Shown here: in pieces, positions 10,809-29,864 of the stretch
How the letters are laid out: the number at the start of each line of letters is the position of its first letter
How positions within the stretch are numbered: the first letter of the stretch is position 1
Source: an uncultured Planctomycetaceae bacterium
Lineage (GTDB): Bacteria > Planctomycetota > Planctomycetia > Planctomycetales > Planctomycetaceae
Assembly (NCBI GenBank): GCA_903924405.1
Contig: CAIYBH010000471.1
Span: forward strand, 152 to 64,151
Length of the DNA: 64,000 bases
Direction: 5' to 3'
Translations under genes and position numbers: made by a program
Notes under the pieces: generated by a model
Told to the model about the DNA's origin: nothing
Seen by the model: the letters and a program-made list of their open reading frames with translations, nothing else
Database searches by the model: none

Positions 10809-13800
10809 TTACTTTCGTGGCAGGGCGATCGGCCGCAGGTCAGTCGGTTGCACGTCCTGATCCCACGTGTCTGACCAGCCATCCCAGTGAATTCGCACGG
10901 TGCGATCCGGGTTCATTCGCAGGATGGTGACGGGCGACCACCCTGAACCGTAGCGGATTTCGGCTTTTTCTCCCTGTTTCCACGTCTGTCGGGATCCCGG
11001 GCTGAGTGCTGCGGTGGTTGCAGCGAAGGCGGCAGCGTTGGTGGGTGACAATCTGGCAAAATGAACCACCGTATTGAATCCCTCGCTTTCAACCCACGCA
11101 AACAGGTCGTTGTCGCCAGTTGAGCAGGCCGTACCGCGCGAGCCGGCTTCGGGTGGGGCTGTAATCGCCGCCGGCGACTGATCGGCAATCCGCCATGCCT
11201 GGAGTTTGCCCCAGCCAAGAGCGACGACCGTTTTCCCGGAATCCGCGAGCAGCAGGCCAGTCAGCGGGGCATTTCGCGCCATGGGAATCGTGGCGACCTC
11301 CCTGCCGGAACTCGTCTCAAAAAAACGCAGGCTTCCGTCCCGATTCCCATCAACGATCAGTAGTTTCCCATTTTGAGAAAACACGGCAGCACCGGGCGAT
11401 TTGTCTCCAAGGGAGATGACGTCTGGCTGTTTTTCATTCCGTGGGGAGAATTTCGCGAGATCGCGGCCATCCGTCACATACACGTCGCGCCCATCTGTAC
11501 TGACCCAGCCGCCGCGAATATCCGACTTCAGGGGATTCTGCAGTACTCGAATGGCTTTACGAGTCCGAAGATTCCAGACATGCAGTTGCTGATTCACACA
11601 CACCGAGAGGACAGTGGTCCCGTCACGACTGATTATCACGTGTTTCAATTCCGCGTGTGAGCCGCTGTCAAGGTGCCCCCGATACGCTTCCACAAACTTC
11701 ATTTCACCCGTCTGCGTGACGTCAAAGACGAGTATCTGGCCATCTCGCCCTGCCACCAGAATCTGTTTTCCCTGCGGGCTGAGACAGAGCATGGTGCCCC
11801 AGGTAATGTCATTCAGCGGCACGGTGGTTCCGATGATTTCCCCGGTGCGTGTGTCCGCCAGCATCAGGGCATTTGTATTGGTGGCCAGTACCAGTCGACT
11901 TCCGTCGGGTGATAATGCCATGGCCGCGGCGCGCACCTGAGGAAAGGAGATTCGGGGCACAATCGTGCGGGACGCATTCATCCGGGCGCTGCTGTCGGCT
12001 GACTCCGGGTCGACGCTCAGCAGCAGCGAGGCTTCTCGAAAGACTTCCGTAAATGAATCGCGTTTCATGGTGCCTCCCGGTACGCGCAGGGCACCCAGTG
12101 ATCGCGGGAGCCCCGGCAGTTGTTCCATACGTTTCAGAAACTCGGCCTGAGTCAGACCAAATTCTGCGGCAGCCATGGAGGTTGGGATTTCCGCCTGAAA
12201 CCGCTGCGACATACTGGAAACCGGTTCACCGGCACGGCTGGTATTGATAATTCCCAGTTGGCTGAGGGTTTTCAGGTAGGCCTGACCGTCCGCCTGATAG
12301 TAACGGTCAAGTGCACTCTGGCCTGGATAAATGGCCTGCAGGTAGCCCACGTTGTCGAACGAACTGCCGTTGATCTCCAGAAACGGGCGAATTTCGTCCT
12401 CTTTACGAATGATGCCGGCGAAATGGCAGGAGAAGCAGGACACACCATTGATCACGGTTCGGTCATGAGTGGCCGGGTCACTGACGATGGCCGTTGGCCC
12501 GCTGTCCAGCCGAGCTCCCGAGCCATCAGAGAGCATGTACCCCTGCAGCCCATTTGGGAGCGTGAAGATCAACTCTCCCCCGTCATGCAGAAACGCCTGA
12601 TCTCCAACGGGGCCCTCTGGATACTCAAACAAATTCTGCCGTCCGGTGTTGGCGGCAAAGTCGTAGCTTTTCCAGTAGGCGCCATAAGCGATTTCGTGAC
12701 GTTCGATGAGACGATTATTTCGGGAGACTCCCGAGCGGTTGAAGCCGGCGCGAACGATTTTCTCCTGTTCGATATTGGCGGGCGCATCCACATGCAGTAG
12801 CAGCTCCAGCTCTTTTTCCGTATCCGGGATTCGCAGTACCTGGTGGTACAGCGGCGGGCGCGATGCCTTGAATACAAACCAATCGGCCCTGACCCACGGT
12901 TCCGGCGTGCCACACTGCTCAGCACAGGCGTCTGCCATTGGGATATCGGGTTCAAATGGGTACGGATTGACTCCCAGAATCTGCTCCCAGATTTCGCTGC
13001 TCCAGTTCAAATCCCGAATATCAAGGCGCAGAATTGTGCGGCTGTCATTCACTTCATGAGGCAGTACGATCTGTCGTCCCCACGAAAGACTATTGACCAG
13101 CTTTGCAAAGGCCAGGCGGTAGGTCTGCATTTCTTCTTCAGAAACGCCGGCGTTGTACAGATGGGTCAGAGTGAAATAGCGAATGAACCGACGGCTGCGT
13201 TCATTCAGAGTCATTAAATCGGCATGGATCGTCTGAACTACCTGTTCGGCTGTGATGAAGGTTCGCTTTGATTGACTGGAAGGAATGGGGGCGCCGTTTT
13301 GTATCCATTGCCGAATCGTCTGGATCTGCGTCGCGGTCAACTGTGGCATTTCTCCCGCCGGGGGCATCAGCGTTGCTGAATCTGTCGAGGCGATGCGGCG
13401 GATCAGCAGCGATGATTCCGGATCTCCGGGCCGTACCAGAAACTCGCGAACTTTTTCCAGGCTGGCCACATAGTTCATGCCGCCTTCGTTCGTTCCACCT
13501 TCTCCGTGGCAGCGATAACAGGCGGTTTTCAGGATGCTGGCAACAGCCTGGGCCTCTGCGACCGATGCCGCGGTTTCCGCGACAGGAACCGGCTGCGGCG
13601 GCAGGCTCCGCCCGGCCAGCAACTCCTCATTCGGCAACAACGGCGCCCCTGGCGACTCAGTAGCCCCTGCCCCGGGTTCCAGTGGAGACGTCTCTAACGC
13701 AGAAGACGCTGCAGGAGCCGAAGACGCGGAGATTTCCGTTGGTTTTTCAGTGCGACCTGCCACGGACGCGTTTTCCGGAGACGACTCGACGCTGCTCGGC

Positions 13801-14342
13801 GGGGATGACGGAGCGGGGGATGGTAATTGGGAAGGCTCGTCTGCCGCCAGCAGATTTTTGAGATCCACGGGTGCCTGTTGCGAAACGTCCGCGGGTGGCA
13901 GAGCAGGTTTCGCTGATACCGGTCCCCCGGCAAACTCCGAGGAAGGCGTCGTGAGGAATTCGGGCGGCTGGCCACCGTCCGAAGAATCGAGCCCCTGCGG
14001 CGGCGACGTGTCTCCGGAAAACGAAAGCAATAGCGATACACTCAGCAGTGCCACCGCGATCACACCGGCGCCGATTTTCCAGACCCCGGTCAGACTTTGA
14101 GGCTGCGGGGCGACGGAGTGTGCCACCGGATTTTTCAGCACCTGCTGCTCCGACGGTTCGAGCGGCCTTGTGCTGCCGCTGCGTCCCGACCGGGGAGCAA
14201 CGGGCGACGGGACAGCAGGAAGTTCGCCGCCGACGACTGAGACGGCGGATGCACAGTCGGGACACCGAATTCGTTTGCCAGCCAGGGCGTCGTCAACGCG
14301 AATATTACGACCACACTGCGGACACACACACACGATAGACAT
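10809..14342 (-). CDS. Membrane-anchored multidomain protein: N-terminal zinc ribbon, TM helix, low-complexity linker, PSCyt1 (planctomycete cytochrome c) domain, large conserved middle region with one CxxCH, WD40-like repeats, C-terminal Tudor/SH3-like module
   Basis: ORF 10809..14381 begins at a TTG; the first ATG (14342) gives MSIVCVCPQCGRNIRVDDALAGKRIRCPDCASAV (CxxC...CxxC). TM: IGAGVIAVALLSVSLLLSF. PSCyt1 motif: CYRCHGEGGTNEGGMNYV...LMPP...QIQTIRQWIQNGAP. Single heme motif: CFSCHFAG. Repeats: LSPDGSRLVLAT.., LSPQGKQILVAGRDGQILVFD. C-terminus: WKQGEKAEIRYGSGWSPVTILRMNPDRTVRIHWDGWSDTWDQDV. Confidence 0.85.
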   Translation of the reverse strand: MSIVCVCPQCGRNIRVDDALAGKRIRCPDCASAVSVVGGELPAVPSPVAPRSGRSGSTRPLEPSEQQVLKNPVAHSVAPQPQSLTGVWKIGAGVIAVALLSVSLLLSFSGDTSPPQGLDSSDGGQPPEFLTTPSSEFAGGPVSAKPALPPADVSQQAPVDLKNLLAADEPSQLPSPAPSSPPSSVESSPENASVAGRTEKPTEISASSAPAASSALETSPLEPGAGATESPGAPLLPNEELLAGRSLPPQPVPVAETAASVAEAQAVASILKTACYRCHGEGGTNEGGMNYVASLEKVREFLVRPGDPESSLLIRRIASTDSATLMPPAGEMPQLTATQIQTIRQWIQNGAPIPSSQSKRTFITAEQVVQTIHADLMTLNERSRRFIRYFTLTHLYNAGVSEEEMQTYRLAFAKLVNSLSWGRQIVLPHEVNDSRTILRLDIRDLNWSSEIWEQILGVNPYPFEPDIPMADACAEQCGTPEPWVRADWFVFKASRPPLYHQVLRIPDTEKELELLLHVDAPANIEQEKIVRAGFNRSGVSRNNRLIERHEIAYGAYWKSYDFAANTGRQNLFEYPEGPVGDQAFLHDGGELIFTLPNGLQGYMLSDGSGARLDSGPTAIVSDPATHDRTVINGVSCFSCHFAGIIRKEDEIRPFLEINGSSFDNVGYLQAIYPGQSALDRYYQADGQAYLKTLSQLGIINTSRAGEPVSSMSQRFQAEIPTSMAAAEFGLTQAEFLKRMEQLPGLPRSLGALRVPGGTMKRDSFTEVFREASLLLSVDPESADSSARMNASRTIVPRISFPQVRAAAMALSPDGSRLVLATNTNALMLADTRTGEIIGTTVPLNDITWGTMLCLSPQGKQILVAGRDGQILVFDVTQTGEMKFVEAYRGHLDSGSHAELKHVIISRDGTTVLSVCVNQQLHVWNLRTRKAIRVLQNPLKSDIRGGWVSTDGRDVYVTDGRDLAKFSPRNEKQPDVISLGDKSPGAAVFSQNGKLLIVDGNRDGSLRFFETSSGREVATIPMARNAPLTGLLLADSGKTVVALGWGKLQAWRIADQSPAAITAPPEAGSRGTACSTGDNDLFAWVESEGFNTVVHFARLSPTNAAAFAATTAALSPGSRQTWKQGEKAEIRYGSGWSPVTILRMNPDRTVRIHWDGWSDTWDQDVQPTDLRPIALPRK

Positions 14343-14853
14343 GATGAAAGGCCCGGACGACTCTGAACGGCAGCAGGACAACGGTCACTCAGGAACTGAT
14401 GAGTCTGATCGAAGGGGCGCTTCACTGTCAAGTTGGGCCGATACCAGCCGCGACTGTAACGCAATCACCCGCTGTGGTACACAGTTCGACCACGTTCGCT
14501 TTGATGGCCCGCGTTTCCGTCCCTTACCGTGCTCGTGCTTGTTTAAGCCAACTTCCTGGGGTATCAGTGATGCTTGCGCTGACGGCGTGACAAAAAGGAT
14601 GGCGGGGCTTCGGCGTCGATTTTGATTTCGGCTTCCAGCACGAGCACGAGCAAAGGGGGCTGGAAAACCGGGGGGGATCGCACCGAAAGGGCTACTCGCA
14701 GAAGAACCCATGGGGAATGCTCAGAATTCGCTGTTTTCCGGGCAGGATTTTTCAGCGGTCCCCCCAGGTCCCGATGGAATGCGGGATGACGATTTGCCTG
14801 CCGAGGCTATGATGCAGCCATTCCGTTCGATTTCCTGCTGCCGGGAGATTTCC

Positions 14854-16466: not shown

Positions 16467-16529
16467 ACGCCTGACCTCGCCGCCCCGCCGCCGCGCCCGT
16501 AACGCTGCCGGGGCGCTGTGTCTTCCAGG

Positions 16530-16554
16530 GAACCCGTCTATGGCGGGTTCTTTT
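16530..16554 (+). terminator. Candidate intrinsic terminator after the ThuA gene
   Basis: GAACCCG-tctatgg-CGGGTTC (7-bp stem) followed by TTTT, 64 nt after the stop codon. Confidence 0.5.
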
Positions 16555-17083
16555 CAGGGGGGACTGGCAGGACCTGGTTCTCCTCCAGCACTCACCTGGA
16601 CATGTGCAGGTATTTGGGGAACGCTGTGGGCTGAAGTATCGAACCACAACGCCGACGGCTGGGATAGCGAAACGCCGCGTATCCCGGCAATAGTCGCCTT
16701 TCGCTCCGCCTAAACGTGCCGGCTTTTCCCAGCCGAAGCCCCGGGGCGACATCTCCAGGCAATTCACCAGAAGACGCCCTGCCCCCCCGTCTCTGCACCG
16801 TGTCGCTATTCCATTCGAGGGCATGCCGCGCGTGCCATGGACGTCGATCGAAACTGCGCCGCCCCGACACGGGACGGCTAACGCCGCGCAGACGGGCAGT
16901 TTCGGCCGATCGCAACTGTGCACGTACACTCTGGTGCACTGTGAGACTGCTTCTCGCCTGATCCCCTCGAATACCCTCACTCGACTGCTGATTCGTGCTT
17001 GCAGTGAACAGGTGTCCTGTTGTATTTCGGGGGAATATAGGCAATGCAGGAGTTATAAGTGATTGAGTTTTCGGACAAACGGC

Positions 17084-19051
17084 ATGTGGGTTGTTAACCT
17101 GATTCGCTTCGCTCGCACCGCCCTTGAGTGGGTGACCGGGGGCGGCGTCGATTCTGTGCGGCAGCCGACCACTGGGTGTGCGAAGGGTGTGCGGCGTGAC
17201 GGCCTGCTGATCGTGCTTGCTCTGCACCTGCTGCGAGCCACGTTAGCGTGGTCTGAGGAATCAGCGCGTGTGGGGACCGTGGGGCGTGCGAGCCTGGACG
17301 AAGTGACCGAGGCCGGAACCGAAAACGACGCGGACTTTCCATGGGTTTTGCGACGATTTCCGGAGGCCGAACAGCAGCGTGAGTTGCCTGCTGGTGAAAA
17401 CCCAACGGACGCTGTCAACGGGGCCGGCGCGCAGATCGTGCCGGATCGTTGGCGTTCGCCATTTCCGATTGCGGACCGTTATCAGGGACGGAAACAACAT
17501 CCGGATCAGCCATATAAACCCCGCACACCCTGGGATCCGTATCACCAGCACGTATTGAAGGGGGACTACCCGATTTTCGGCGAGGACACTTTTCTGAACT
17601 TCAGGGTTTCCAATCAACTTCTGTATGAGCGACGGGAGGTTCCGGCCAGTGCATGGAACGGCAGTCAAACGCAGACCCCGGGCGCAATCCGCAGTATCGG
17701 CGATCCGCACCAGCAGTTTTTTGCGGACAGTCTGCGGTTGCAGGTCAGTGTTTTTCAGGGCGACGCGTCATATCAGCCGGTGGACTGGCAGATCCGTATG
17801 ACTCCGGTGCTGAACAGGAATTATCTGGAGGCGAATGAACTGGGAGTGGTTTCTGCGGACCCGGCCAGTGGCAAGGTGCGTAATCAGGGTGATATTGCTT
17901 TTGATGAATGGTTCGCCGAATGGCGGCTGGCCGACTTGAACACGGATTTTGACTTTATGTCAGTCCGAGCGGGATCACAGTGGTTTGTGAGTGATTTTCG
18001 GGGACTGATTTTCGCTGATACCAATCGAGCCGTGCGTGTGTTCGGCACGGCCGCGGCCAATCGACATCAGTATAATCTGGTCATGCTGGATCAGGCGGAG
18101 AAAGACACGAATAGTTTTCTGAACACTTTTCGGGATCGTCATCAGAACACGCTGATTGCCAACTACTATATCCAGGACTTCGTAACCCCGGGCTATACTG
18201 TACAATTCAGTCTGCACTACAACGATGACCAGGCGGATCAGCAACAGGACGATAATGGATTTCCGGTGCGACCGGCTCCGGTGGGCTCCACGTATTCTCA
18301 CGATGTCCGTGCAGCCTACTTAGGATTTGCCGGGGACGGTCATCTGGGTGTCCTGAATATCAGCCACGCGTTTTATCATGTCGAAGGCACTGATGAGTTC
18401 AATGCACTTCAGGGGCAGAGATCGCAGATTCGCGCGAATCTGGCGGCCGTCGAGCTGTCGCTGGATCGCGACTGGATGCGATTTCGAACATCTGTCCTGT
18501 ACGCGTCCGGAGATTCTGATCTTCAGGACGGTCGAGCGTCTGGCTTCGATGCGATCACGGACAATCCCAACTTTGCGGGAGGGCAATTCAGCTTCTGGCA
18601 GCGTCAGCAGATTCGCCTTCTGGGTGTGAATCTGACTCAGCGGGAAAGCCTGCTGCCGAATCTGCGTCCCGGAAAATTTCAGGGACAGGCCAACTTTGTC
18701 AATCCAGGGTTGCGGCTGCTGAATGCGGGAGTGGATTTTGAACTGACGCCAAAACTGCGCACGGTGACAAATGTCAATCTGCTCTGGTTTGATCAGACTG
18801 AGTCTCTTGAATTGCTGGCATCGCGCCAACGCGTGGCGCGGCGAATCGGGACCGACCTGAGTCTGGGGCTTGAGTATCGGCCATTGCTGAATGATCACGT
18901 GATCCTGACGACGGGACTGGCTTCGCTGATTCCGGGTCAGGGATTCATTGACGTATTTGAGGACGACCTGCGTACGGTGACTGCGCTGCACGATCAACAG
19001 AAGCCGGAGACGCTGCATGCGTTGTTCATGGATCTGATGCTGACATGGTGA
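17084..19051 (+). CDS. Predicted outer-membrane beta-barrel protein (alginate-export/porin-like)
   Basis: ORF 17063..19051 starts at a TTG; the first ATG is 17084. An in-frame GTG at 17189 would give a clean signal peptide (M)RRDGLLIVLALHLLRATLAWSEE. Amphipathic strand pattern runs throughout (SLRLQVSVF, WQIRMTPVL, VQFSLHYN, AAVELSLDRDWMRFRTSVLYA, GVDFELTPKLRTVTNVNLLWF, LSLGLEYRPL). The C-terminus ends in an aromatic residue (LFMDLMLTW), the usual OMP signature. Confidence 0.7.
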   Translation: MWVVNLIRFARTALEWVTGGGVDSVRQPTTGCAKGVRRDGLLIVLALHLLRATLAWSEESARVGTVGRASLDEVTEAGTENDADFPWVLRRFPEAEQQRELPAGENPTDAVNGAGAQIVPDRWRSPFPIADRYQGRKQHPDQPYKPRTPWDPYHQHVLKGDYPIFGEDTFLNFRVSNQLLYERREVPASAWNGSQTQTPGAIRSIGDPHQQFFADSLRLQVSVFQGDASYQPVDWQIRMTPVLNRNYLEANELGVVSADPASGKVRNQGDIAFDEWFAEWRLADLNTDFDFMSVRAGSQWFVSDFRGLIFADTNRAVRVFGTAAANRHQYNLVMLDQAEKDTNSFLNTFRDRHQNTLIANYYIQDFVTPGYTVQFSLHYNDDQADQQQDDNGFPVRPAPVGSTYSHDVRAAYLGFAGDGHLGVLNISHAFYHVEGTDEFNALQGQRSQIRANLAAVELSLDRDWMRFRTSVLYASGDSDLQDGRASGFDAITDNPNFAGGQFSFWQRQQIRLLGVNLTQRESLLPNLRPGKFQGQANFVNPGLRLLNAGVDFELTPKLRTVTNVNLLWFDQTESLELLASRQRVARRIGTDLSLGLEYRPLLNDHVILTTGLASLIPGQGFIDVFEDDLRTVTALHDQQKPETLHALFMDLMLTW

Positions 19052-22000
19052 CCAGCAGGCCTGGAGACGCCAACACCTGGTGTCTCAGCCATTTGGTACG
19101 GAAATCAAGCCCCGGAATGACCCGGGAGCACCGTTCCGAATCACGATGCGGAACTCGCGGTTTTTCGACATACATCAGGGACGAGACGAACATGGTTTTG
19201 GTGCGCTGCTCTTTGCTGATGCTGGCCCTGATGGGCTGGTTCAGTCTGATTGCTCGGAACGCGTGCGATGTGTTCTCGACCGACTCGATCCAGGTTACAG
19301 GCTTGCGAGCCGACGAGACCGACTTTCGCTGGCGGACATCAAGGCCACGAGACGATCGGGAGAGTTCGCCTCCGGAGGCATTACGGTCGGAATCTCGCAG
19401 GGAAGCTAATTCGGTTTCCGACGAGCTCACGGCACGACATCGCCGCCCTGCGGACCTGACCGTCGAATCCGTTCCGAAGCCTGCCGTCACCGACTCAGGA
19501 GAGCGGCAACAGACAGCGGACTCACAGGCTGTACGACCAGTTGAGCTGAAGACGAGGACCCCCGGCGACAATCGAGGAAACCGGCAACAGTTGCCTTCCG
19601 ACTCCACCGAGGGCGTTGTGCACATTTCCGCGACTCGCAAGACGCAAACACCCTGGCAGTCGGCGCAGCAGATCCATGTCAAAAGTCAGGGCTGTGTGAC
19701 CTGCCACCAGGGAGCTCATGACCCACACTTCAGCGATGTGGTCCGCCTGGGCTGTACCGACTGCCACGGAGGTGATGCGACAACCACGGATAAGACCCGC
19801 GCACATATTCATCCGCGAAATCGCGAGGTATTCGTGAACTCTGGAAATCCGGTCCGTTCTTACACGGCACTGAATCACGAGGATCCCGCCTTCATTCGAT
19901 TCATGAACCCGGGCGATCTTCGGATTGCTCACCTGAGCTGCGGGACAACGGGTTGTCATGATCAGGAGCACCAGCAGGTTCGAAACAGCATGATGACACA
20001 CGGCTGCATGCTGTGGGGGGCCGCCTTGTACAACAATGGTTCGGTCTCTCAAAAGTGGTCTCGCTACGGAGAAAGTTACAGTATGCACGGGGAACCGCAA
20101 CGTTTGCTGACAATCCCTGCTCCTACGGCGGAGGACACCGAGCGGCGGGGCATCCTTGCATCTCTGGAACCGCTGCCGCGATTTGAAGTCACCGAGCCGG
20201 GAAATCTCCTGAGGGTTTTCGAACGCGGTGGACGCTTTTCTTCAGAGATCGGAATACCCGAGCGATTCGAGGAGTCCGGACGGCCGAGGACACGGGCCAG
20301 CCAGCGAGGGCCGGGAACAGGAACCCGCACCGATCCCGTCTTTCTCGGTCTGCAGAAAACCCGGCTGCTGGATCCCACGCTTAACTTTCTCGGCACCAGC
20401 GATCATCCGGGGGATTATCGCTCCAGTGGCTGTACCGCGTGCCACATGATCTATGCCAACGACCGCTCGCCGATTCACTCCGGTCCGTATTCCCGTTACG
20501 GAAATCGTGGTACTGCGGCATCGATTCCCGATGCGTTGACGGGCCCACCGGATCCGATGATTCCCCGCAATGAACCGGGGCATCCGATAACGCATCGATT
20601 TACATCAGCAATTCCCACCAGTCAGTGTATTGTCTGTCATATGCATCCGGGGACCTCTGTGATGAACAGCTATCTGGGATACATGTGGTGGGATCTGGAA
20701 ACAGACGCCCGCTTTATGTACCCGGGGCGTGAACGCCGCTTATCGACCACCGAGCTGAATGCGGCGTCGGAATCGGATCCGAATGAGTCGGCCGCACGGG
20801 GGCGATGGTCAGATCCTGACTTTCTGCAGCGTTCCTCAGAGCTGAATGCTCAACTGCCGACCACCCAATTTGCCGATTTTCATGGCCACGGCTGGGTGTA
20901 CCAGGCAGTCTTTCGCAGAGATCGCGAGGGGCAGATTGTCGACTATTCCGGACGTCCGATTCTGCAGCCGACCGTCGAACAGCGTCAGCAGGCGATGCAG
21001 ATTCCCATCGTGGCCCGGGAAATGCAGCGTGACCGTGACTGGACGGAACCCGGCCGTGATCTACTGCAGCGGGTTCAGAGTCAGGAGGCCGAGCTGCTGG
21101 CTAAGAAAGACAATGTCCCGGTTCATATGCTGGACATACATCTGGAAAAAGGCATGCACTGTGTGGATTGTCATTTCGTGCAGGATGTGCACGGAAATGG
21201 GAAGCTGTATGGCGAGGTGCGTGCAGCAATTGAGATTCAGTGTATTGACTGCCACGGTACGGCAGACAAGCCGGCAGGACAGGTCGTTGATGGTCATCGG
21301 CAGTTGACCACCTCCGGGCCGGCCGCTGCGACGTCGGATCAGGCCACTGTGGGACGCAACCTGTCCGCGATGCGAACTCCCTTCGGACAACGACGATTCG
21401 AAAACATATCCGGGCGCGTCATTCAGAACTCTATGGTAGAACCGAACCTGAGCTGGGAAGTGCCTCAGGTGGCCGACACTCTTGATCCGGACCATCCGGA
21501 CTATAATCCTGCGGCTGCGCTCGCCAAAACTGTGCGAATGAAGGCTGACGGGCGTTTTGAGTGGGGTGATTTGCCGTCCGATCAGAGTCCCTGTGCGCAT
21601 CAGCCACGAACGATGTCGTGCATCGCCTGCCATACTTCGTGGAACCCCAGTTGTTTTGGTTGTCATCTGCCGCAGAAAGCCAATCGTCGAACACCCTCGC
21701 TGCATAACGAGGGTCATATCAGTCGCAATCATATCGCCTATAACTTTCAGACCCTGCGCGATGACGTGTTCATGCTGGCTCGGGACGGCAACGTCACGGG
21801 CAATCGGATTGGCCCGGCGCGATCGTCCTGCGCGGTGCATGTGACCTCGTTCAACAGCAATCGGGAAGCTGTTTACCTGCAGCAGCAGACCGTATCAGCA
21901 GAGGGGCTCAGTGGCACAGCCTTCAGCACCAATGTCCCACACACCGTTCGAGGTAAGGGGGAGACAAAGACATGTACCGACTGTCATCTCGCGGCAGATA

Positions 22001-23487
22001 ATGACAACAACGCTCTCATGGCTCAGTTGCTGATGCACGGCACCAACTACTTCAATTTCGTCGGGGCCAATTGCTGGGTCGCGGCCGGTAAGGATGGCCT
22101 GCATGCGATTGCTGTGACGGAACGGGATGAACCGCAGTCTGTGATCGGCAGTACTATGCATCAAACGGTCTATCCCGACCGTTATCGGGCGCATGTCGAA
22201 CGTGGTCGCACACTGTTGGATGCGGTCCGACATCCTGGCAGTGACATTGGCGAACAGTGGCTGCGTCCCGACCGACAGCACGAGGTCCTGAGTGTGCAGG
22301 TGCGGGGTGAATACTGCTACGCGGCCTGCGGCGAAGCCGGAATCCGAATCTACGACACCGCCTTTGTGGAACACAAAGGCTTCTCCCAGCGGATCACAAC
22401 TGCTCCCGTTTCACCTCTGGGGCAGCGTCTGTATGTGGAGAGCCCCTATGCCACAGATATTGCCGCGCCGGCCACGATGGCTGTCGATCCGCAGCGAACG
22501 CGTCTGTCCGAGAACCATGAGCAGGCTGTACATCCTGTGTATGGATACCTCTACGCTACAGATTTTCAGGAAGGACTGATTCTGATCGGCGCCGGGACGC
22601 TTCTGGACGGTAATCCGCTGAACAATGTGCTGAAGAAAGATCTCGTCTTTAACCCGAACGGTCTGCTCCACGGCGCTCGATCCGTCACACTCTCCGGAAC
22701 GACCGCATGGGTTTGTTGCCTTGCGGGACTGGTCAGCATTTCCCTTGACGATCCTTTGAATCCTGTGGTCAACTGTGTCCTTGGACAGGATCTGCTGCGA
22801 CACCCCGTCGCCGTGGAGATTCAGTTTCGCTACGCATTTGTTGTGGATGAAGAAGGTCTGAAGGTACTGGACATTACTGAACCGAAAACCCCAGTCCTGA
22901 AATCGCTGGTCCCCCTGAATGATGCACGAAACGTGTATGTCGCCCGAACGTATGCATACGTGTCCGGCGGTCAACAGGGACTGATCCTTGTGGATGTCCG
23001 TGATCCACTCAATCCCCGTGTGGATCAGATCTACGATGCCGCGGGCAGGATCAACGATCTTCGTGATGTCAAACTGGGGATTACCTACTCCAGTCTTTTT
23101 GCCTATCTCGCCGATGGGAGGAATGGGGTTCACGTCGTCCAGTTGACGTCTCCGGAGACCCCGGGCAACGCTGGTTTCTCCCCGCGTCCCCAGCCCACGC
23201 TCATCGCCACGTTCCCCGTCACGGGAAAAGGACGGGCTCTGTGTATTTCCGAGGGACTGGACCGGGATCGTGCGGTGGACGAAGCCGGGAACCAGATTTC
23301 GGTGTTCGGACGCGTCGGTGCCAGGCCACTGAATCTGGCCGAACAAAAGAAGCTGTACTACAGAAACGACGTAGGGCCGTGGTTTGTCACAGACCCGTTG
23401 CGAGACTGGTCGATGCGTGATCCTTCGGATCGGGAACGCCGTCTGCGGCGACAACTGGAGGACTTTTATGGCCCATCCCGACGTTGA
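19045..23487 (+). CDS. Multiheme c-type cytochrome (9 CxxCH + 1 CxxxxCH) fused to a C-terminal LVIVD-repeat beta-propeller
   Basis: Heme motifs between 19693 and 21987: CVTCH, CTDCH, CGTTGCH, CTACH, CIVCH, CVDCH, CIDCH, CIACH, CFGCH, CTDCH. LVIVD-like repeats at ~22290-23170: YCYAACGEAGIRIYD, YGYLYATDFQEGLILI, TAWVCCLAGLVSISLDDPLNP, RYAFVVDEEGLKVLDITEPKTP, TYAYVSGGQQGLILVDVRDPLNP, LFAYLADGRNGVHVVQLTSPETP. The ATG at 19045 overlaps the upstream stop (ATGGTGA). An alternative ATG at 19192 gives a signal/anchor MVLVRCSLLMLALMGWFSLIARNA. Confidence 0.9.
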   Translation: MVTSRPGDANTWCLSHLVRKSSPGMTREHRSESRCGTRGFSTYIRDETNMVLVRCSLLMLALMGWFSLIARNACDVFSTDSIQVTGLRADETDFRWRTSRPRDDRESSPPEALRSESRREANSVSDELTARHRRPADLTVESVPKPAVTDSGERQQTADSQAVRPVELKTRTPGDNRGNRQQLPSDSTEGVVHISATRKTQTPWQSAQQIHVKSQGCVTCHQGAHDPHFSDVVRLGCTDCHGGDATTTDKTRAHIHPRNREVFVNSGNPVRSYTALNHEDPAFIRFMNPGDLRIAHLSCGTTGCHDQEHQQVRNSMMTHGCMLWGAALYNNGSVSQKWSRYGESYSMHGEPQRLLTIPAPTAEDTERRGILASLEPLPRFEVTEPGNLLRVFERGGRFSSEIGIPERFEESGRPRTRASQRGPGTGTRTDPVFLGLQKTRLLDPTLNFLGTSDHPGDYRSSGCTACHMIYANDRSPIHSGPYSRYGNRGTAASIPDALTGPPDPMIPRNEPGHPITHRFTSAIPTSQCIVCHMHPGTSVMNSYLGYMWWDLETDARFMYPGRERRLSTTELNAASESDPNESAARGRWSDPDFLQRSSELNAQLPTTQFADFHGHGWVYQAVFRRDREGQIVDYSGRPILQPTVEQRQQAMQIPIVAREMQRDRDWTEPGRDLLQRVQSQEAELLAKKDNVPVHMLDIHLEKGMHCVDCHFVQDVHGNGKLYGEVRAAIEIQCIDCHGTADKPAGQVVDGHRQLTTSGPAAATSDQATVGRNLSAMRTPFGQRRFENISGRVIQNSMVEPNLSWEVPQVADTLDPDHPDYNPAAALAKTVRMKADGRFEWGDLPSDQSPCAHQPRTMSCIACHTSWNPSCFGCHLPQKANRRTPSLHNEGHISRNHIAYNFQTLRDDVFMLARDGNVTGNRIGPARSSCAVHVTSFNSNREAVYLQQQTVSAEGLSGTAFSTNVPHTVRGKGETKTCTDCHLAADNDNNALMAQLLMHGTNYFNFVGANCWVAAGKDGLHAIAVTERDEPQSVIGSTMHQTVYPDRYRAHVERGRTLLDAVRHPGSDIGEQWLRPDRQHEVLSVQVRGEYCYAACGEAGIRIYDTAFVEHKGFSQRITTAPVSPLGQRLYVESPYATDIAAPATMAVDPQRTRLSENHEQAVHPVYGYLYATDFQEGLILIGAGTLLDGNPLNNVLKKDLVFNPNGLLHGARSVTLSGTTAWVCCLAGLVSISLDDPLNPVVNCVLGQDLLRHPVAVEIQFRYAFVVDEEGLKVLDITEPKTPVLKSLVPLNDARNVYVARTYAYVSGGQQGLILVDVRDPLNPRVDQIYDAAGRINDLRDVKLGITYSSLFAYLADGRNGVHVVQLTSPETPGNAGFSPRPQPTLIATFPVTGKGRALCISEGLDRDRAVDEAGNQISVFGRVGARPLNLAEQKKLYYRNDVGPWFVTDPLRDWSMRDPSDRERRLRRQLEDFYGPSRR

Positions 23488-24065
23488 CCGGCCGGGAGCT
23501 ACAACTGACGGGGCGTTGCGGAAACACCCGGCGGCTGGCGTTGCAGATCGTGTCACCACAACTGCAACGCAAGAGTGAGCCTTAGATGGCGAAACCATGG
23601 AAGAATCGGAGTTGTTTCGCGTCCCTGGATTGATCACAGAACGGTCACGGTTTCGCGTTTTCGGCAGGAAACAGCGCTGATGCTCGTTTCGTTGGGGCGA
23701 AACGCGACTGTTTGCCGGTTGAACGCCTTTTCGCCATCCCCGGATGAGCCTGGAGATTCCATCGCTTCAGAATGATCGTCAATTCCGGGCAACCCGGAAA
23801 AAAGATGGCCCCCTGGCCCGGGACTCTTTGCGTTTTCCCTGACGGCGGATTAAAACAGTGTCGCCGGTCTTTGTGGTCCTCAATCTGGCACACAAGTACA
23901 CTCCAGGCGTCTTTTCGCCTGGCATCCTGCCGCAACTTCCCCTGCAGGCTCTCTGCGGGGGGATCAACACGGTCCGGAATTCTCCGGCACGAAGGTTTCG
24001 CAGGCAAAAGAAGGTGGCCTGCCGCCTTCACCCACCCACTTCAACATGCTGCTAAGGGCTGCCCA

Positions 24066-25487
24066 ATGCCTGTCTCTTGCTCAACCCTGCCTCGCGTCGC
24101 TGGACTGCTGACTGCACTGTTTTTATCCACGACCACGCTTGCTCAGGACAGTGCCGAAAGCAAAATCAGTTACTACCGCTCTGTCAGACCGATTTTGCAG
24201 AGAAACTGTTCTGGCTGTCATTTCGGTGGAAAGAAAGAAGGCGGGCTGGTTGTCACTTCCGTTGCGGATCTGCTGCATGGCGGTGACTCGGGCGCCGCAA
24301 TTCTTGCGGGCAAGGTTGACGATAGCCCGCTGATCCAGAATGTCATTGGTGACGACCCGGAAATGCCCCTCAACGCGGATCCTCTCAAGCCTGAGCAGGT
24401 CGAACTGCTGAAAAAGTGGATCAGTCAGGGCGCCGTGGATGACACCCCAGCCTCCGTCGAACAGGTCGTGTCGCCCGAGAATCCTCCCGTCTACACGTCA
24501 CCACCGGTTGTGACCTCGCTGGACTACTCGCCGGATGGACGACTGCTGGCTGTCACTGGCTACCACGAAGTGCAGATTCATACTCTGGATGGCAGTGCGG
24601 CTCCTCGACGATTCATCGGGCGTGCACAGCGAATCGAATCCCTCGCGTTTTCCCCCAACGGTCAAATCCTTGCTGTGGCTGGAGGAACCCCGTCGCTGTT
24701 CGGTGAACTGCAGCTTTGGAATGTTGCCGACGGAAAACTCCTGCATGCTCTAACCATCGGCAACGACTCACTGTTTGGCGTCAGTTTCAATGATGATGGA
24801 ACTCTGGTGGCCTTCGGCAGTGCCGACAATCGAGTTCGCGTCGTCAGGGTGGAATCCGGTGAACAGCAGATGCGGATGGATGCCCACGCTGACTGGGTCC
24901 AGGGAACGACATTCTCACTGAAGAATGATCACGTGATCAGTGTCAGTCGGGATCGCTCGATGAAACTGTCCATTGTTTCCAACGGACAGTTCGTGGACAA
25001 CATCACCAGCATTACCCCCGGGGCTCTGAAAGGTGGCCTTGTGGATGTCCAGCGATTGCCGGCGGCTGAAGAAGTACTGGCCGCAGGAGCTGACGGCGAA
25101 CCTCGCCTCTACAAGATCTTCCGTGAGCGTGCGAGGCAGATCGGAGACGACTTCAACCTGATTCGTTCGTGGCCACGAGTGGAAGGACGCCTCACCGATC
25201 TGGACATCGCCCGATCCGGAACGCGTTTCGTGATCGGCTCCAGCACCGCTGTTTCCGGCGCTGCGCGTATCTGCATGGTGGCGGATCCCGCAAAAAATGT
25301 GGATTTGCCCGGGCTTCCATCGCCAGTGTTTGCCGTTAGCTTCCGCCCCGACGATGCACAGGTGGCGGTGGGTGGCTTCGACGGAATTGTCCGACTGTTC
25401 AATGCCGAGTCCGGGCAACTGGAGACTTCCTTCCCGGCTGCCGCGGTCACGGCCCCGGCCGCCGTAACTGCCAGTCGTGCTCCATAA
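24066..25487 (+). CDS. Secreted PSCyt1 (planctomycete cytochrome c) domain + WD40-repeat protein
   Basis: The ATG at 24066 gives MPVSCSTLPRVAGLLTALFLSTTTLAQD (signal peptide). PSCyt1: ILQRNCSGCHFGGKKEGGLVVTS...DDPEMPLN...QVELLKKWISQGA. WD40-like: LDYSPDGRLLAVTGYHEVQIHTL, LAFSPNGQILAVAGG..LQLWNVADGKLL, VSFNDDGTLVAFGSADNRVRVVRV, VSFRPDDAQVAVGGFDGIVRLFN. Confidence 0.85.
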   Translation: MPVSCSTLPRVAGLLTALFLSTTTLAQDSAESKISYYRSVRPILQRNCSGCHFGGKKEGGLVVTSVADLLHGGDSGAAILAGKVDDSPLIQNVIGDDPEMPLNADPLKPEQVELLKKWISQGAVDDTPASVEQVVSPENPPVYTSPPVVTSLDYSPDGRLLAVTGYHEVQIHTLDGSAAPRRFIGRAQRIESLAFSPNGQILAVAGGTPSLFGELQLWNVADGKLLHALTIGNDSLFGVSFNDDGTLVAFGSADNRVRVVRVESGEQQMRMDAHADWVQGTTFSLKNDHVISVSRDRSMKLSIVSNGQFVDNITSITPGALKGGLVDVQRLPAAEEVLAAGADGEPRLYKIFRERARQIGDDFNLIRSWPRVEGRLTDLDIARSGTRFVIGSSTAVSGAARICMVADPAKNVDLPGLPSPVFAVSFRPDDAQVAVGGFDGIVRLFNAESGQLETSFPAAAVTAPAAVTASRAP

Positions 25488-26866
25488 GCACCCCTCGTCA
25501 TCCATGCTGTGGCAAACAAACACGCTGCGGGGATGCCAGCAACTGTGTTGCGCAAAACGTATACCACCATCAGCTGACTTGCCTTCCATGGGTATGTCAA
25601 TCTGTTTCCAGCACTTTCAGGCGTCGCAGCATCAGGGTGTATTGCTGATCGTCAGAATTCCAGGGTGTTCGATTCTCTGAAGGTCGACACGATGGCAAAA
25701 CAGGAAGCGAGGGGCATTTTCCGCTTGATTGCGGAGGCTGTTTTGTGTGCCAGCTTCGCCGGGGATCAGCCGAGCCGCACGGTGCGTGAAAACGAAGCGC
25801 AACAATGTGCTGGTCGAATGAAATTCCGCCATCTCGAGCGATCGCTACTGCCGGGCCAGATTGCTCCTCACGTCATGATTTTCCGCTAACGGCCGGTCAC
25901 TCGGACGGGGTCATGGATTGCCCCGTTGTGCGGTTCAAACGCAATCTATCCACCTGCTGGTGACTGCGCTCACCATCTGGTGGCCCCCCGGTAACCTGAT
26001 CCCCTCATGCTTGCAGGAAACCTGCACAGTTCACCGCGACCCAGTATTCCCAATTATAGAAATCTTCCAGGTCGGAAAATCCATCCTAAACCTCTCAGAG
26101 CCCGAAAAACTCGTATCACCGTCTCAGACGCCACAAACGAATCGCGCCCACTGGCGGCATAATTCGCCAGCGATTCAATCCGGCTCAGGGGTGGCTGCCA
26201 GCATACTGCCGCAGACACGAGCGACGTTCCGGTTCAGGATTCCTGAGGAAATTTCAACGTAAATAATTGATTCAAAAGGACTTACGGCTCCTGATTGGCT
26301 GCACGTTGATTTCCAGATCTGGGCAGATAGCTCGTGCCATCAGAGATCATCTGGCTCTCTACCAGAGTCGCCGAGGCAATTGGGGGGAAGTACGTGAAAG
26401 GCCGTAGACCTGCGTTTCAGCTTTTGCCCGCAACTAGTACTTCAGCCCCTGAACTTCAAAGGTCCGCAGACCTCCCATTTCATGACAGTTGTCACGGCGT
26501 TGCAGTTGACGTATATTCCCCGAGTGTTGCGTCTCATCTTCGCAGGTTGCGAAGCGGGCAGAGTTTCTCAACGGAGCTTGACCGAGTGTTCTGAGTGATG
26601 CATGGTTGATCGACTGAAGTCTGGTCATGCCGGCTTCTGGCGACCCACCGGATCGCAAGTTGACAGACAGTTCTGAAACCTGCGTGACAAACGGTAACTA
26701 CGAGAAATTCTTCTCGTGGTCGTCTGTTGCCGCAAGACAGGTCGTCTTTCAGCAAGCGACTCAGTTGTACGGGGTGAAAGTTCCCCGGGTCGGGCAGAGC
26801 ATTGAAACGGTATCCTGCCGCATGAGGTTGGTAAGGTTGTTCGTATTGAGAAAGGTAGAGGTTGTT

Positions 26867-27328
26867 ATGAAGTCGTTGTCTGTGGTTGCATTGATGCTGT
26901 GTGGTCTGGTCCTGGGCCAGGTAAACGGACAGGAAGCTGCTCCAGCCCCAACGCCGGTTCCTGAGCACGGAACGGTCGTGGAAGCTGCTCCGGAAGCACT
27001 GTTCGAGCATGTGAAGTACAAGGACCTGCACGAAATGGCACCATGTGCAGTTCCGCGCATCATCGCAGTGAATGATCCCTGCGCCTGCGACGAACCCTGT
27101 GACTGCTGCAAGAAGTCCTGCGGCTGTGAAAAGTCCTGCGGTTGCGAAAAGACCTGCTGTGCCTGCGAAAAGAAGGTCGTCTTCATCCAGATCTGCGTTC
27201 CTGAGTGCAGCTGCGAAGAAGAAGTGATCTGCCGCCGTGACGGCGACCGCGTTCGCTACGACTTCGGCAAGTACGCTGTTGACGTTCGCGTAAAGAAGGG
27301 CCACATCGAAGTTGACTACCAGGACTGA
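26867..27328 (+). CDS. Small secreted cysteine-rich (metallothionein-like CxC/CC cluster) protein
   Basis: The ATG at 26867 is preceded by AGAGG 6 nt upstream. Signal peptide MKSLSVVALMLCGLVLGQVNGQEA. Cys cluster: DPCACDEPCDCCKKSCGCEKSCGCEKTCCACEKKVVFIQICVPECSCEEEVIC. A strong terminator follows. The longer ORF from 26627 is unconvincing. Confidence 0.75.
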   Translation: MKSLSVVALMLCGLVLGQVNGQEAAPAPTPVPEHGTVVEAAPEALFEHVKYKDLHEMAPCAVPRIIAVNDPCACDEPCDCCKKSCGCEKSCGCEKTCCACEKKVVFIQICVPECSCEEEVICRRDGDRVRYDFGKYAVDVRVKKGHIEVDYQD

Positions 27329-27371
27329 TTGTCCGGCTGTCATGCTTTGACTGATGTACTATTGATCAAGA

Positions 27372-27405
27372 GGAACGGCTGCGTAAGCTGCCGTTCCTTT
27401 TTTTT
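27372..27405 (+). terminator. Rho-independent terminator
   Basis: GGAACGGCtGC-gtaa-GCtGCCGTTCC (8+2 bp stem with one mismatch, tetraloop) followed by TTTTTTTT, 44 nt after the stop of the Cys-rich gene. Confidence 0.85.
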
Positions 27406-27692
27406 ATGCGCTGCACTACAGTCGGCCTCGGCATCAGCTGCGTTCAGTGGCCTCTGCTTCCGGCGTCTTCCGGTACAGGAACCCCGGTCGCCTCACGAGA
27501 CTTATGGAGTGGCCTGCTGAAACAATTGCAGGTCACAGAATTCGGTAGCAGGTTTGAGAATCACGTCGAAACAAGGGCCCTGCCGCGATAAACGGTGGGA
27601 TGACTTGTGCAGATTGACCGCTGTGTCAGTCCGCCAGCGACTCAGAAGTTAGCTGGCAGAAAAGCTCCTGGATCCCACAGAGAGGTACCGGT

Positions 27693-28160: not shown

Positions 28161-28348
28161 CTTAAGATGGCCAGCTGGAGATGACCCGCGTGGTTGGCAA
28201 CACCGCGTCCACCATGGCAAGCGGCAGACTGCAGCCGGTTACAGGTCAACGCGTGGCCGGGTGCCACCGAGTCGTCCGTCCCTATGCGGATTCATGTCGT
28301 TGCGAACGCCACCAGCCTGCAACTGTTCTCAGGCTGCCGGGTGCAGTA

Positions 28349-29629: not shown

Positions 29630-29864
29630 GTGCTGCCGATCTGAGTGATTTCCGGATTGTCAGCAGCGTGTCACCAATCCGGTACCCCGGATCTTACGAG
29701 CGAAGATGACGTTGGAAAGTGCCCCCGGAGAAATTCCCTGTCACTTCCGGGATTCGCGATGGAATCGATTCACCGCTCAGGTTCCTCGAGACCGCCCAAC
29801 ATCACCTCAGCAGACTCACACGCGCTCGTCCCGCCTCAATGCACCGAATCCACCTCCCCTGCAT

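Follow-up and report, generated by a model that had tools for sequence, protein, structure and literature searches.

We identified a pair of adjacent genes encoding an 18-stranded outer-membrane beta-barrel (gene A) and a decahaem c-type cytochrome with a C-terminal LVIVD beta-propeller (gene B), and the same arrangement recurs in distant relatives from two bacterial phyla. The pair appears to be co-inherited. In our preferred reading, which we consider evenly poised between right and wrong, it would terminate an envelope electron-transfer chain at the outer membrane. Planctomycetota and Acidobacteriota, whose envelope biology is, as far as we know and in the literature that we searched, poorly characterized, belong to the most abundant bacterial groups of soils, lakes, and oceans. 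Both proteins are unnamed, their main parts belong to no Pfam family, and a literature search found no paper on the barrel–cytochrome family.

Within the window, which is the whole 64-kb stretch of DNA that was analyzed, the two genes are laid out as follows.

17189..19051, + strand: gene A, outer-membrane beta-barrel, 620 aa from the probable start GTG 17189 (alternative starts: ATG 17085, giving 655 aa, in public gene calls; TTG 17063, giving 662 aa, in the longest ORF)
19052..19191, no strand: spacer of 140 nt from gene A to gene B, after public gene calls
19192..23487, + strand: gene B, decahaem c-type cytochrome / LVIVD beta-propeller, 1431 aa

The initial annotation had described two ORFs, of 662 aa (17063..19051, + strand) and 1480 aa (19045..23487, + strand), with the stop of the former overlapping the start of the latter in ATGGTGA at 19045–19051. 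Both ORFs and the ATGGTGA string are present, and the proposed barrel and haem motifs also held up; the gene overlap did not, as it results from the choice of the longest ORF. Public gene calls start gene B at ATG 19192, the signal peptide opens directly there, and the 49 codons 5′ of this ATG have no counterpart in gene B homologues. The two genes therefore lie 140 nt apart, and this start also excludes the overlap as evidence of translational coupling. For gene A, starting at GTG 17189 would yield a canonical signal peptide, MRRDGLLIVLALHLLRATLA. Scans around the gene pair, spacer included, found no promoter or terminator that was convincing above chance, and no riboswitch or other RNA element above chance was found around the pair. 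Near-identical copies of both genes (99–100%) are present in NCBI MAG GCA_903857035.1, and the closest named relative is a Planctomycetaceae MAG (88%), which confirms that the DNA comes from Planctomycetota. The neighbors of the pair in the window encode ThuA, a FabZ-like protein, and PSCyt1-WD40 proteins.

The gene A product is divided into the following parts.

17189..17248, + strand: putative signal peptide MRRDGLLIVLALHLLRATLA, read from the sequence
17429..17587, + strand: conserved N-terminal extension before the first strand (residues 81–133)
17588..19045, + strand: barrel body of 18 strands (residues 134–619), followed by the aromatic W620, from DSSP of the AF2 model
18506..18709, + strand: highly conserved loop L7, 68 residues between strands 13 and 14 (residues 440–507)

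The hallmarks from which an outer-membrane barrel had been proposed, LLIVLALHLLRATLA and a C-terminal ...LMLTW, are both found in the ORF, the terminal aromatic is kept among homologues as LTY, LTW, or LTF, and these homologues have hydrophobic N-termini comparable to that of gene A. The AF2 model, of medium confidence (pLDDT 68, with strands mostly at 80–90), is consistent with this proposal, showing 18 long strands with turns of 2–7 residues at one end of the barrel and long loops at the other, as in outer-membrane proteins. Structural matches were all to porins: the best Foldseek hit was AlgE (E 1e-16, target TM-score 0.6–0.69, identity of 10–12% in the structural alignment), followed by other 16–18-strand porins (MOMP, OprD/Occ, maltoporin), and among the best 50 matches every one was a porin of 16–18 strands and MtrB was absent. 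By sequence, Pfam gave no family for the barrel protein at E<=0.01, and the barrel family comprises more than 1843 homologues, all of them unnamed, and spans about 2000 clusters at 50% identity in a representative-library search.

In the barrel body, conservation is higher at inward-facing positions (0.81) than at lipid-facing ones (0.67). The interior holds 64 inward-facing positions that are at least 95% conserved, and its charges are balanced (15 Arg versus 15 Asp/Glu). The N-terminal extension, which is probably periplasmic, has column conservation of 0.71–0.92 and includes the invariant residues D86, R87, W88, R89, K124, G125, and D126; in some homologues, HEAT repeats lie N-terminal to it. 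Loop L7 (conservation 0.83) carries the motif DNPNFAGGxFSxWQRQ...NFVNPG and is modeled by AF2 with low confidence; it is a candidate constriction or plug, or a candidate loop for binding a partner. The barrel protein has no cysteine and therefore no c-type haem of its own.

The gene B product has four parts.

19192..19263, + strand: putative signal peptide MVLVRCSLLMLALMGWFSLIARNA, as read from the sequence
19264..19656, + strand: non-conserved, low-complexity linker (residues 25–155)
19657..22278, + strand: haem domain, from a motif scan
22279..23406, + strand: C-terminal seven-bladed LVIVD beta-propeller (about residues 1030–1405)

All ten haem-binding motifs reported in the initial annotation (nine CxxCH and one CxxxxCH) are invariant in sets of 40 and of 87 homologues, while the number of CxxCH motifs expected by chance, calculated from the Cys and His content of gene B, is about 0.03. 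The motifs start at residues 168, 188, 250 (the CxxxxCH), 414, 479, 657, 684, 810, 821, and 928, so spacing the haems over about 780 residues (168–932), and the domain holds at least 15 other invariant histidines. It consists of two five-haem halves, each headed by a paired-CxxCH module, and this internal repeat was recovered by hhalign with a probability of 90%. Homologue N-termini are of the Sec type with A-x-A sites, and among 40 gene B homologues there was no conserved lipobox cysteine at the N-terminus; the gene B product is thus predicted to be an exported, soluble multihaem c-type cytochrome without a lipobox. The linker varies from 0 to about 150 residues across the cytochrome family, and the alignment of homologues begins only at about residue 156. 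A 100% identical protein of 1431 aa exists in a public database, and homologues number about 7975 at 56–71% identity.

Named families matched the cytochrome poorly outside the propeller. Pfam searches with the whole protein and with four segments gave weak, sub-threshold matches to generic c3, c7, and paired-CxxCH families only for the haem region, and the best named-family match, ExtM (NCBIfam NF040943), scored 60.3 bits against a cut-off of 800, its best stretch (residues 636–696) being the repeated dihaem module. For the propeller, LVIVD (PF08309) scored 35.6 bits with the whole protein against a cut-off of 20.2, and 43.9 bits with the isolated C-terminal segment. The AF2 model covered residues 156–1355; its propeller part is confident (pLDDT mostly 85–97) and resembles the seven-bladed propellers 6nau, 1ri6, and AztD in Foldseek, whereas the haem domain falls below a pLDDT of 50 over long stretches. 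A Foldseek search with this model returned propeller matches alone, the haem region being modeled too poorly to classify. PDB sequence and profile searches with both proteins gave nothing significant (NrfA, E 0.09; YncE, E 0.05).

The gene order is conserved well beyond the window, with the cytochrome directly downstream of the barrel on the same strand in 47 of the 64 informative loci, which span Pirellulales, Gemmatales, Planctomycetales, and Acidobacteriota. The same strand and short spacers in two phyla argue for co-expression of barrel and cytochrome. In the other 17 of 64 loci the cytochrome is not the next gene after the barrel, so the barrel may function independently of the gene B product. 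Identity of the pair is 50–60% across orders and 46–50% between phyla; both families are very large, and their conservation is unusual for envelope proteins. Two conditions under which the proposal of the initial annotation would have failed, a soluble non-barrel model for the 662-aa protein and a lack of synteny in relatives, thus did not arise. Among the cultured species with the pair are Rubripirellula obstinata CECT 8602, whose locus L046 has the full trio with the HbpS-like protein, Roseiconus nitratireducens JC645, Rhodopirellula maiorica SM1, Gemmata algarum, and Stratiformator vulcanicus, which makes the role of the pair amenable to direct testing.

A secreted HbpS-like protein, missed in the initial annotation, is the third conserved partner, encoded divergently upstream of the barrel in 50 of 64 loci, a linkage at least as tight as that between cytochrome and barrel. 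Its gene stays with the barrel in loci without the cytochrome (L049, L052, L059, L073, and L081). The partner proteins contain up to four stretches of HbpS-like (PF03928) domain and bear either RTX calcium repeats or an N-terminus of dockerin-like type, and PDB relatives of the domain include the glycolate-utilization protein/EfgA and cobalamin adenosyltransferase. In 13 loci the gene after the HbpS-like one encodes a small secreted protein; the small accessory protein of locus L065 has a His-rich stretch.

In an unbiased census of neighbors over 83 loci, with neighboring ORFs called by a simple longest-ORF heuristic, we found c554-like proteins with 4 or 5 haems (9 loci), an anchored c7-type 10-haem protein (5 loci), an FHA-TM-heptahaem protein (4 loci), a membrane protein of 4–5 helices (6 loci), and a cNMP-binding 4Fe-4S protein (7 loci); NuoF-like proteins recur as well. 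Clusters of relatives also encode small, dense periplasmic cytochromes (9 haems in 262–286 aa). Assignment of the 4–5-helix membrane protein to cytochrome b561 comes from a single sub-threshold Pfam hit, with no hit for its other members. Upstream of the pair in locus L087, from the clade nearest to the window, both the FeS protein and the 4–5-helix membrane protein are encoded in divergent orientation. Neither polysaccharide genes nor Fur-type or transport genes recurred in this census. The 64-kb window itself contains none of the HbpS-like, small secreted, membrane, FeS, or NuoF-like partners, nor any other accessory electron-transfer gene of the relatives; its 7-haem ORF at 44302–45711 is weakly similar to the c554-like family (29% over 90 residues) and shares nothing beyond haem motifs with the FHA-heptahaem protein.

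Beside the pair, relatives thus encode periplasmic multihaem carriers, a membrane protein, and FeS/NADH-type proteins of the cytoplasm, a gene content that fits an envelope electron-transfer chain. In such a chain, electrons would pass along the ten haems of the gene B product, and periplasmic multihaem carriers would deliver electrons to it or take them from it, so that flow in either direction can be envisaged. We infer that the cytochrome is positioned at the outer membrane and associates physically with the barrel, where it would trade electrons with a substrate taken in, let out, or displayed by the barrel. The barrel would then be a specific gated channel or a docking platform and would not sheath the cytochrome; its interior is polar and strongly conserved, with constriction by L7 probable. 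In most relatives the secreted HbpS-like protein, which has a haem-binding fold, would be the third partner.

If the pair is the outer end of such a chain, these bacteria would have a pathway devoted to redox reactions on or close to the cell surface, in which oxyanions, reactive oxygen species, metals, or humic matter could take part. Annotation pipelines, and surveys for extracellular electron transfer (EET) based on Mtr/Pcc homology, would then miss it. A more elaborate version of this idea, which strikes us as distinctly unlikely, is a third, independently built outer-membrane electron route that is widespread in Planctomycetota and Acidobacteriota, phyla whose members are mostly aerobic. 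Here the barrel of 18 strands would be plugged, with its inward-facing His, Arg, and Glu residues conserved; it would dock the periplasmic decahaem-propeller protein and a secreted tandem HbpS-like haem-binding protein on opposite sides and might hold a non-covalent cofactor between them, so that electrons would cross with no inserted wire of the MtrA type.

The initial annotation had likened the pair to Mtr/Pcc conduits, and a true trans-outer-membrane conduit for EET is an unlikely alternative. The outer membrane would be bridged by a portion of the cytochrome or by a cofactor that the barrel carries, with electrons then reaching an acceptor or donor outside the cell, for example minerals, humic substances, or electrodes, or else the secreted HbpS-like protein, whose RTX calcium repeats or dockerin-like N-terminus are typical of extracellular proteins. 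Conserved adjacency of barrel and multihaem genes favors this, as does the content of the fuller clusters in relatives, which make up the classic set of inner-membrane module, periplasmic cytochromes, barrel, and large cytochrome. The barrel's extracellular loops L3, L4, and L7 are conserved as if they bound a conserved partner, and ten haems over about 800 residues in two five-haem halves form a layout like that of MtrC/OmcA. MtrB, however, has 26 strands, and the known sheaths are larger than an 18-strand barrel, which with its packed, conserved interior leaves little room for an inserted cytochrome and cannot draw on a c-type haem of its own. Neither protein has an MtrA-, MtrB-, or MtrC-like Pfam match, the gene B product lacks a lipobox, and such cultured carriers as Rubripirellula, Rhodopirellula, and Gemmata are aerobic heterotrophs for which, to our knowledge, no EET has been reported. 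The pair is also conserved far beyond the known conduit proteins, which are fast-evolving (PMC12977616).

The HbpS-like partner is central to two further readings. In one, which seems to us quite improbable, the barrel serves to translocate or anchor the HbpS-like protein, or exports a polymer as AlgE does, and the cytochrome is a co-regulated neighbor with a separate enzymatic role in the periplasm. The tight barrel–HbpS-like linkage and its persistence without the cytochrome point this way, along with AlgE, the alginate exporter, as the top structural match, and the succession of HbpS-like and small secreted protein genes. Set against them are the short-spaced, same-strand cytochrome gene in two phyla, the lack of polysaccharide-synthesis genes beside the pair, whether in the window or at the loci inspected, the absence of a sequence link to the Alginate_exp family, and the pair in the window, which has no HbpS-like gene at all. 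The other reading, iron or haem acquisition or the sensing of envelope redox stress, we regard as very improbable. In that case the cytochrome could act as a reductase of Fe(III) or of haem iron, its product could enter through the barrel, and the HbpS-like protein could bind haem or iron as HbpS of Streptomyces does. This would suit the repeated PF03928 domains of the partner, the histidines of the L065 accessory protein, and the likeness of the propeller to AztD and other propellers of the periplasmic metal-chaperone type. Members of the HbpS-like domain family differ in function, however, Fur-type and transport genes do not recur beside the pair, and the electron carriers and NADH/FeS modules that do recur are a better fit to electron flow of the respiration type.

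Similarity to MtrCAB, MtoAB, and PioAB (of Shewanella, Sideroxydans, and Rhodopseudomonas) lies in a barrel gene adjoining the gene for a ten-haem c-type cytochrome, with periplasmic and membrane-anchored multihaem cytochromes added in the clusters of relatives. That neither protein resembles MtrA or MtrB, as had been noted by eye, was borne out by Pfam and structure searches, and the Mtr/Pcc mechanism was not. MtrB and PioB have about 26–28 strands, whereas the barrel here has 18, is AlgE-like, and has no MtrB/PioB Pfam match; its packed polar interior is unlike a 26-strand sheath. The MtrA wire is compact (about 300–350 aa), in contrast to a cytochrome of 1431 aa with spread haems and a propeller of about 400 residues. 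There is no surface lipoprotein analogous to MtrC/OmcA, the gene B product having neither a lipobox nor a Pfam match to PF22113. The pair is far more conserved than these systems and has the HbpS-like partner. An Mtr/Pcc homologue is thus ruled out by the 18-strand AlgE/OprD-like barrel and the non-MtrA-like cytochrome.

The extHIJKLMNOPQS cluster of Geobacter sulfurreducens, which encodes the porin-like ExtI, cytochromes ExtKL, ExtM, ExtN, and ExtS, cytochrome b ExtP, and the Rieske protein ExtO, is described by its authors as not analogous to Pcc clusters, with weak similarity of ExtI to phosphate-selective porins (PMC5877670). It shares with the present clusters a porin-like outer-membrane protein, multihaem cytochromes that are large and unusually well conserved, and a b-type/FeS module in the membrane. 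The ExtM match to our cytochrome is far under the cut-off and is essentially that of one dihaem module, and ExtI, phosphate-selective-porin-like by report, is set apart by description from a barrel modeled as AlgE-like. The rhodanese, selenoprotein, and Rieske protein of the ext cluster are missing here, while the propeller and HbpS-like partner are missing in Geobacter. Uncharacterized porin–cytochrome candidates in the PVC superphylum and Acidobacteriota are also comparable, namely the putative verrucomicrobial porin–multihaem cytochrome clusters (PMC5615132) and the candidate acidobacterial/verrucomicrobial EET1-4 clusters (bioRxiv 10.64898/2026.05.27.727921), both proposed from gene order alone. 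For their porins 20 or more strands are predicted, compared with 18 here, and their cytochromes are Mtr/Omc-like with 8–13 haems; neither a propeller fusion nor an HbpS-like partner is mentioned, and the architectures described differ from that of the present pair.

AlgE of Pseudomonas aeruginosa (PDB 3rbh, 4afk) is likewise a monomeric 18-stranded barrel with long loops that possibly fold into the lumen. Identity to it is low, however, no alginate or polysaccharide context was seen, and membership of the barrel in Alginate_exp (PF13372) was rejected, with no Pfam hit and no profile–profile similarity (hhalign probability 0.3% for the barrel profile against the Alginate_exp protein from locus L001). 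Cyc2 of Fe(II) oxidizers is a fused cytochrome–porin with a small barrel of 16 strands. It differs from the cysteine-free barrel here in carrying its own N-terminal CxxCH haem on the same polypeptide, and resembles it in being a small barrel; the involvement of Cyc2 in outer-membrane electron transfer indicates that such transfer does not strictly depend on a wide sheath.

The two adjacent open reading frames described in the initial annotation, 17063..19051 (+) and 19045..23487 (+), were both recovered in our ORF listing, ATGGTGA is present at 19045-19051, and a motif scan of the downstream protein returned the nine CxxCH motifs and one CxxxxCH motif that had been reported. The start/stop overlap read from this arrangement was an artefact of choosing the longest ORFs: public gene calls start the cytochrome at ATG 19192, 140 nt from the barrel stop, giving a protein that is 100% identical to a 1431-aa database entry and begins immediately with a signal peptide (MVLVRCSLLMLALMGWFSLIARNA). 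The 49 extra upstream codons are unsupported, as homologues align only from about residue 156. Public gene callers start the barrel at ATG 17085 (655 aa), and translation from GTG 17189, from which its residues are numbered here, begins with a canonical signal peptide (MRRDGLLIVLALHLLRATLA). The resulting pair is:

17189-19051 (+), outer-membrane beta-barrel protein, 620 aa, probable GTG start
19192-23487 (+), ten-haem c-type cytochrome fused to an LVIVD propeller, 1431 aa

A freshwater MAG (GCA_903857035.1) matches the window; among its named relatives, a Planctomycetaceae MAG is the closest, at 88% identity. Apart from the overlap, the initial observation was essentially right: the pair is real, very widespread and uncharacterised.

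From its N-terminus, the cytochrome comprises a Sec-type signal peptide, a low-complexity, non-conserved linker (0-150 residues; missing in Gemmataceae homologues), a haem domain of approximately 780 residues, and a 7-bladed LVIVD propeller that scores above the cut-off for Pfam PF08309 and is confidently modelled by AF2; the haem region was modelled poorly. Comparison of homologue N-termini found no conserved lipobox. All ten haem motifs, starting at residues 168, 188, 250, 414, 479, 657, 684, 810, 821 and 928, are unchanged throughout two alignments, one of 40 and one of 87 homologues, with only about 0.03 CxxCH motifs expected by chance from the Cys and His content, and identity is 56-71% across Planctomycetia and about 48-50% in Acidobacteriota. 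The haem domain matches no known multihaem family in Pfam, NCBIfam or PDB; Pfam gave only sub-threshold c3, c7 and paired-CxxCH matches, the PDB search gave NrfA at E 0.09, and the Geobacter ExtM model scored 60 bits against a cut-off of 800 bits. Profile comparison of the halves identified haems 1-2 and haems 6-7 as homologous dihaem modules (90% probability), so the domain consists of two five-haem halves, and the ExtM match is essentially this repeated module.

The barrel had no match by sequence in Pfam, NCBIfam or PDB, and its more than 1843 word-index matches are all labelled hypothetical; the family is nevertheless large, a representative library clustered at 50% identity containing 1996 of its clusters at E<=1e-3, or 695 at E<=1e-30. 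An AF2 model built from 40 homologues (pLDDT 68, strands mostly 80-90; pTM 0.66) places 18 long antiparallel strands between residues 134 and 619. Its top Foldseek match in PDB was the alginate exporter AlgE (E 1e-16, target TM-score 0.6-0.69), followed by MOMP, OprD/Occ channels and maltoporin, all barrels of 16-18 strands; MtrB was not among the PDB matches. The model has the topology expected of a classical outer-membrane protein: short turns (2-7 residues) join the strands on one side and long loops join them on the other (L1 23, L2 22, L5 25, L7 68, L8 17 and L9 26 residues), and a C-terminal aromatic residue is kept across the family as LTY, LTW or LTF. Several features are unusual for a porin. 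Identity is 50-60% across orders, and conservation is greater at inward-facing (0.81) than lipid-facing (0.67) strand positions. Of the inward-facing positions, 64 are conserved at 95% or more, and the interior is charge-balanced, with many Arg, Asn, Gln, Phe and Glu residues. Loop L7 and an N-terminal extension of 50 residues belong to the best-conserved parts, and there are no cysteines. We read these features as a sign of a packed barrel, constricted or plugged, with specific partners rather than an open sheath. The AlgE lumen is likewise occluded, by loops and a periplasmic turn.

Scanning one genome per species yielded at least 590 barrel loci. The best 80, which were retained, come from Acidobacteriota and from Pirellulales, Gemmatales, Planctomycetales and Isosphaerales; cultured members of these four orders in the set include Rubripirellula obstinata, Roseiconus nitratireducens, Rhodopirellula maiorica, Gemmata algarum and Tundrisphaera sp. 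Among the 64 loci with enough downstream DNA, the cytochrome directly follows the barrel on the same strand in 47. A third partner is a large HbpS-like protein (530-1200 aa, up to four PF03928 stretches), whose gene lies upstream of the barrel, in divergent orientation, at 50 of 64 informative loci and also occurs at barrel loci lacking the cytochrome; the protein is probably secreted, given N-terminal parts that carry RTX calcium-binding repeats or are dockerin-like. At 13 loci it is followed by a gene for a small secreted protein of no Pfam family, whose conserved core, about 100 residues long, is rich in Gly and Trp (RAGxP...YxGYYVGGG...EGTWGxDY...HGRRxQGGxGxYxTDGP); the protein at L065 also carries a long His/Glu/Tyr-rich stretch. 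An unbiased census of neighbouring ORFs added further families, listed below by locus (L handles) or count, with > and < marking + and - strand genes.

Genes and example gene orders at barrel loci of relatives
HbpS-like gene, for example: L046 4830-7280 (-); L049 5074-7494 (-); L077 5500-7575 (-)
Small secreted protein: L033 1207-1965 (-); L046 4041-4799 (-); L065 3637-4350 (-); 10 other loci
FHA-TM-heptahaem protein, 4 loci: L077 1185-2549 (+); L078 671-1999 (+); L075 14271-15758 (+); L074 8710-10125 (+)
c554-like 4/5-haem proteins: 9 loci
Cytoplasmic cNMP-binding 4Fe-4S protein: 7 loci
4-5-helix membrane protein: 6 loci
Anchored c7-type 10-haem protein: 5 loci
NuoF-like flavoprotein: about 4-5 loci
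c7-type nonahaem proteins (262-286 aa): 3 loci
L079: barrel > cytochrome > membrane protein > c7 10-haem > c554-like
L080: HbpS-like < > barrel > cytochrome < c7 10-haem < membrane protein < FeS protein
L032: small protein < HbpS-like < > barrel > cytochrome < FeS protein < NuoF-like
L087 (clade closest to the window): membrane protein < FeS protein < > barrel > cytochrome

The membrane protein may be a cytochrome b561, a weak assignment based on one member matching PF01292 below the cut-off. The FHA-TM-heptahaem protein of acidobacterial clusters has its FHA domain in the cytoplasm and, across a single transmembrane helix, a seven-haem domain in the periplasm; to our knowledge, a phospho-threonine-binding domain and a multihaem cytochrome have not previously been described in one protein.

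None of these accessory genes (HbpS-like, small secreted, multihaem, membrane, FeS or NuoF-like) lies within the 64-kb window, where the genes flanking the pair are ThuA, a FabZ-like gene and two PSCyt1-WD40 genes. The pair thus sits between two other haem-plus-propeller proteins, which are conserved in near-identical contigs only. Other features of the window are:

10809-14381 (-) and 23772-25487 (+), fusions of PSCyt1 (planctomycete cytochrome c domain) and a WD40 propeller
16467-17188, gap of about 720 nt from ThuA to the probable barrel start; public gene calls include a minus-strand ORF of 188 aa and no family here, and a search for riboswitches and other Rfam elements gave no match
29865-36506 (-), 2213-aa ORF; the same gene in an identical contig has weak or faint TPR-type repeat matches
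38265-40136 (-), FG-GAP/ASPIC-UnbV repeat gene, 2 kb beyond the next
42344-44305 (-), FG-GAP/ASPIC-UnbV repeat gene, directly following the next
44302-45711 (-), 7-haem c554/c7-type cytochrome, only weakly similar to the c554-like proteins accompanying the pair elsewhere

Cumulative GC skew reaches its maximum near 24-28 kb and declines steeply from there to the window end; the peak region (~24000-30000) coincides with a switch of long ORFs from mostly + to mostly - strand.

Taken together, the recurrent neighbours would trace a route for electrons that starts in the cytoplasm or inner membrane and ends at the outer membrane, comprising a cytoplasmic NADH/FeS module, a membrane protein, periplasmic multihaem carriers, the barrel, a large multihaem protein and a secreted protein of haem-binding fold, with the window pair as its outer end. 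The initial proposal of an envelope redox module survives in spirit, whereas its Mtr/Pcc-type sheath mechanism does not; its main claim, extracellular electron transfer, stays hypothetical. Since the barrel is predicted to be 18-stranded, conserved and packed, we favor, at roughly an even chance, a model in which it serves as a specific gated channel or docking platform, with the soluble decahaem-propeller protein acting at its periplasmic face and exchanging electrons with a substrate crossing, or located at, the outer membrane. A genuine trans-outer-membrane conduit would be consistent with the extracellular-type HbpS-like partner, the conserved outer loops of the barrel and the dense small cytochromes of acidobacterial clusters; we nevertheless consider it unlikely, as the barrel is small and cysteine-free, MtrA/MtrC-like features are lacking and sequence conservation is very high. 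That the barrel instead serves the HbpS-like protein or exports a polymer seems improbable, and a role in iron/haem handling or redox stress slightly more so.

A full-text literature search found no paper on this barrel-cytochrome family, and membership in Mtr/Mto/Pio, Pcc, Ext, Cyc2 and Alginate_exp was rejected, with at least one defining feature failing for each. Other gene clusters have been put forward as candidate porin-cytochrome systems, in Verrucomicrobia (PMC5615132) and in Acidobacteriota and Verrucomicrobiota (bioRxiv 10.64898/2026.05.27.727921). By their descriptions, the porins of those clusters have at least 20 strands and the Mtr/Omc-like cytochromes 8-13 haems, and neither a propeller nor an HbpS-like partner is mentioned; porin-cytochrome clusters share with the window pair their genetic logic alone. 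The nearest published analogue is the Geobacter ext cluster, in which the porin-like ExtI, required for reduction of selenite and tellurite and not of Fe(III) citrate, lies among conserved multihaem cytochromes and a bc-type module (PMC5877670).
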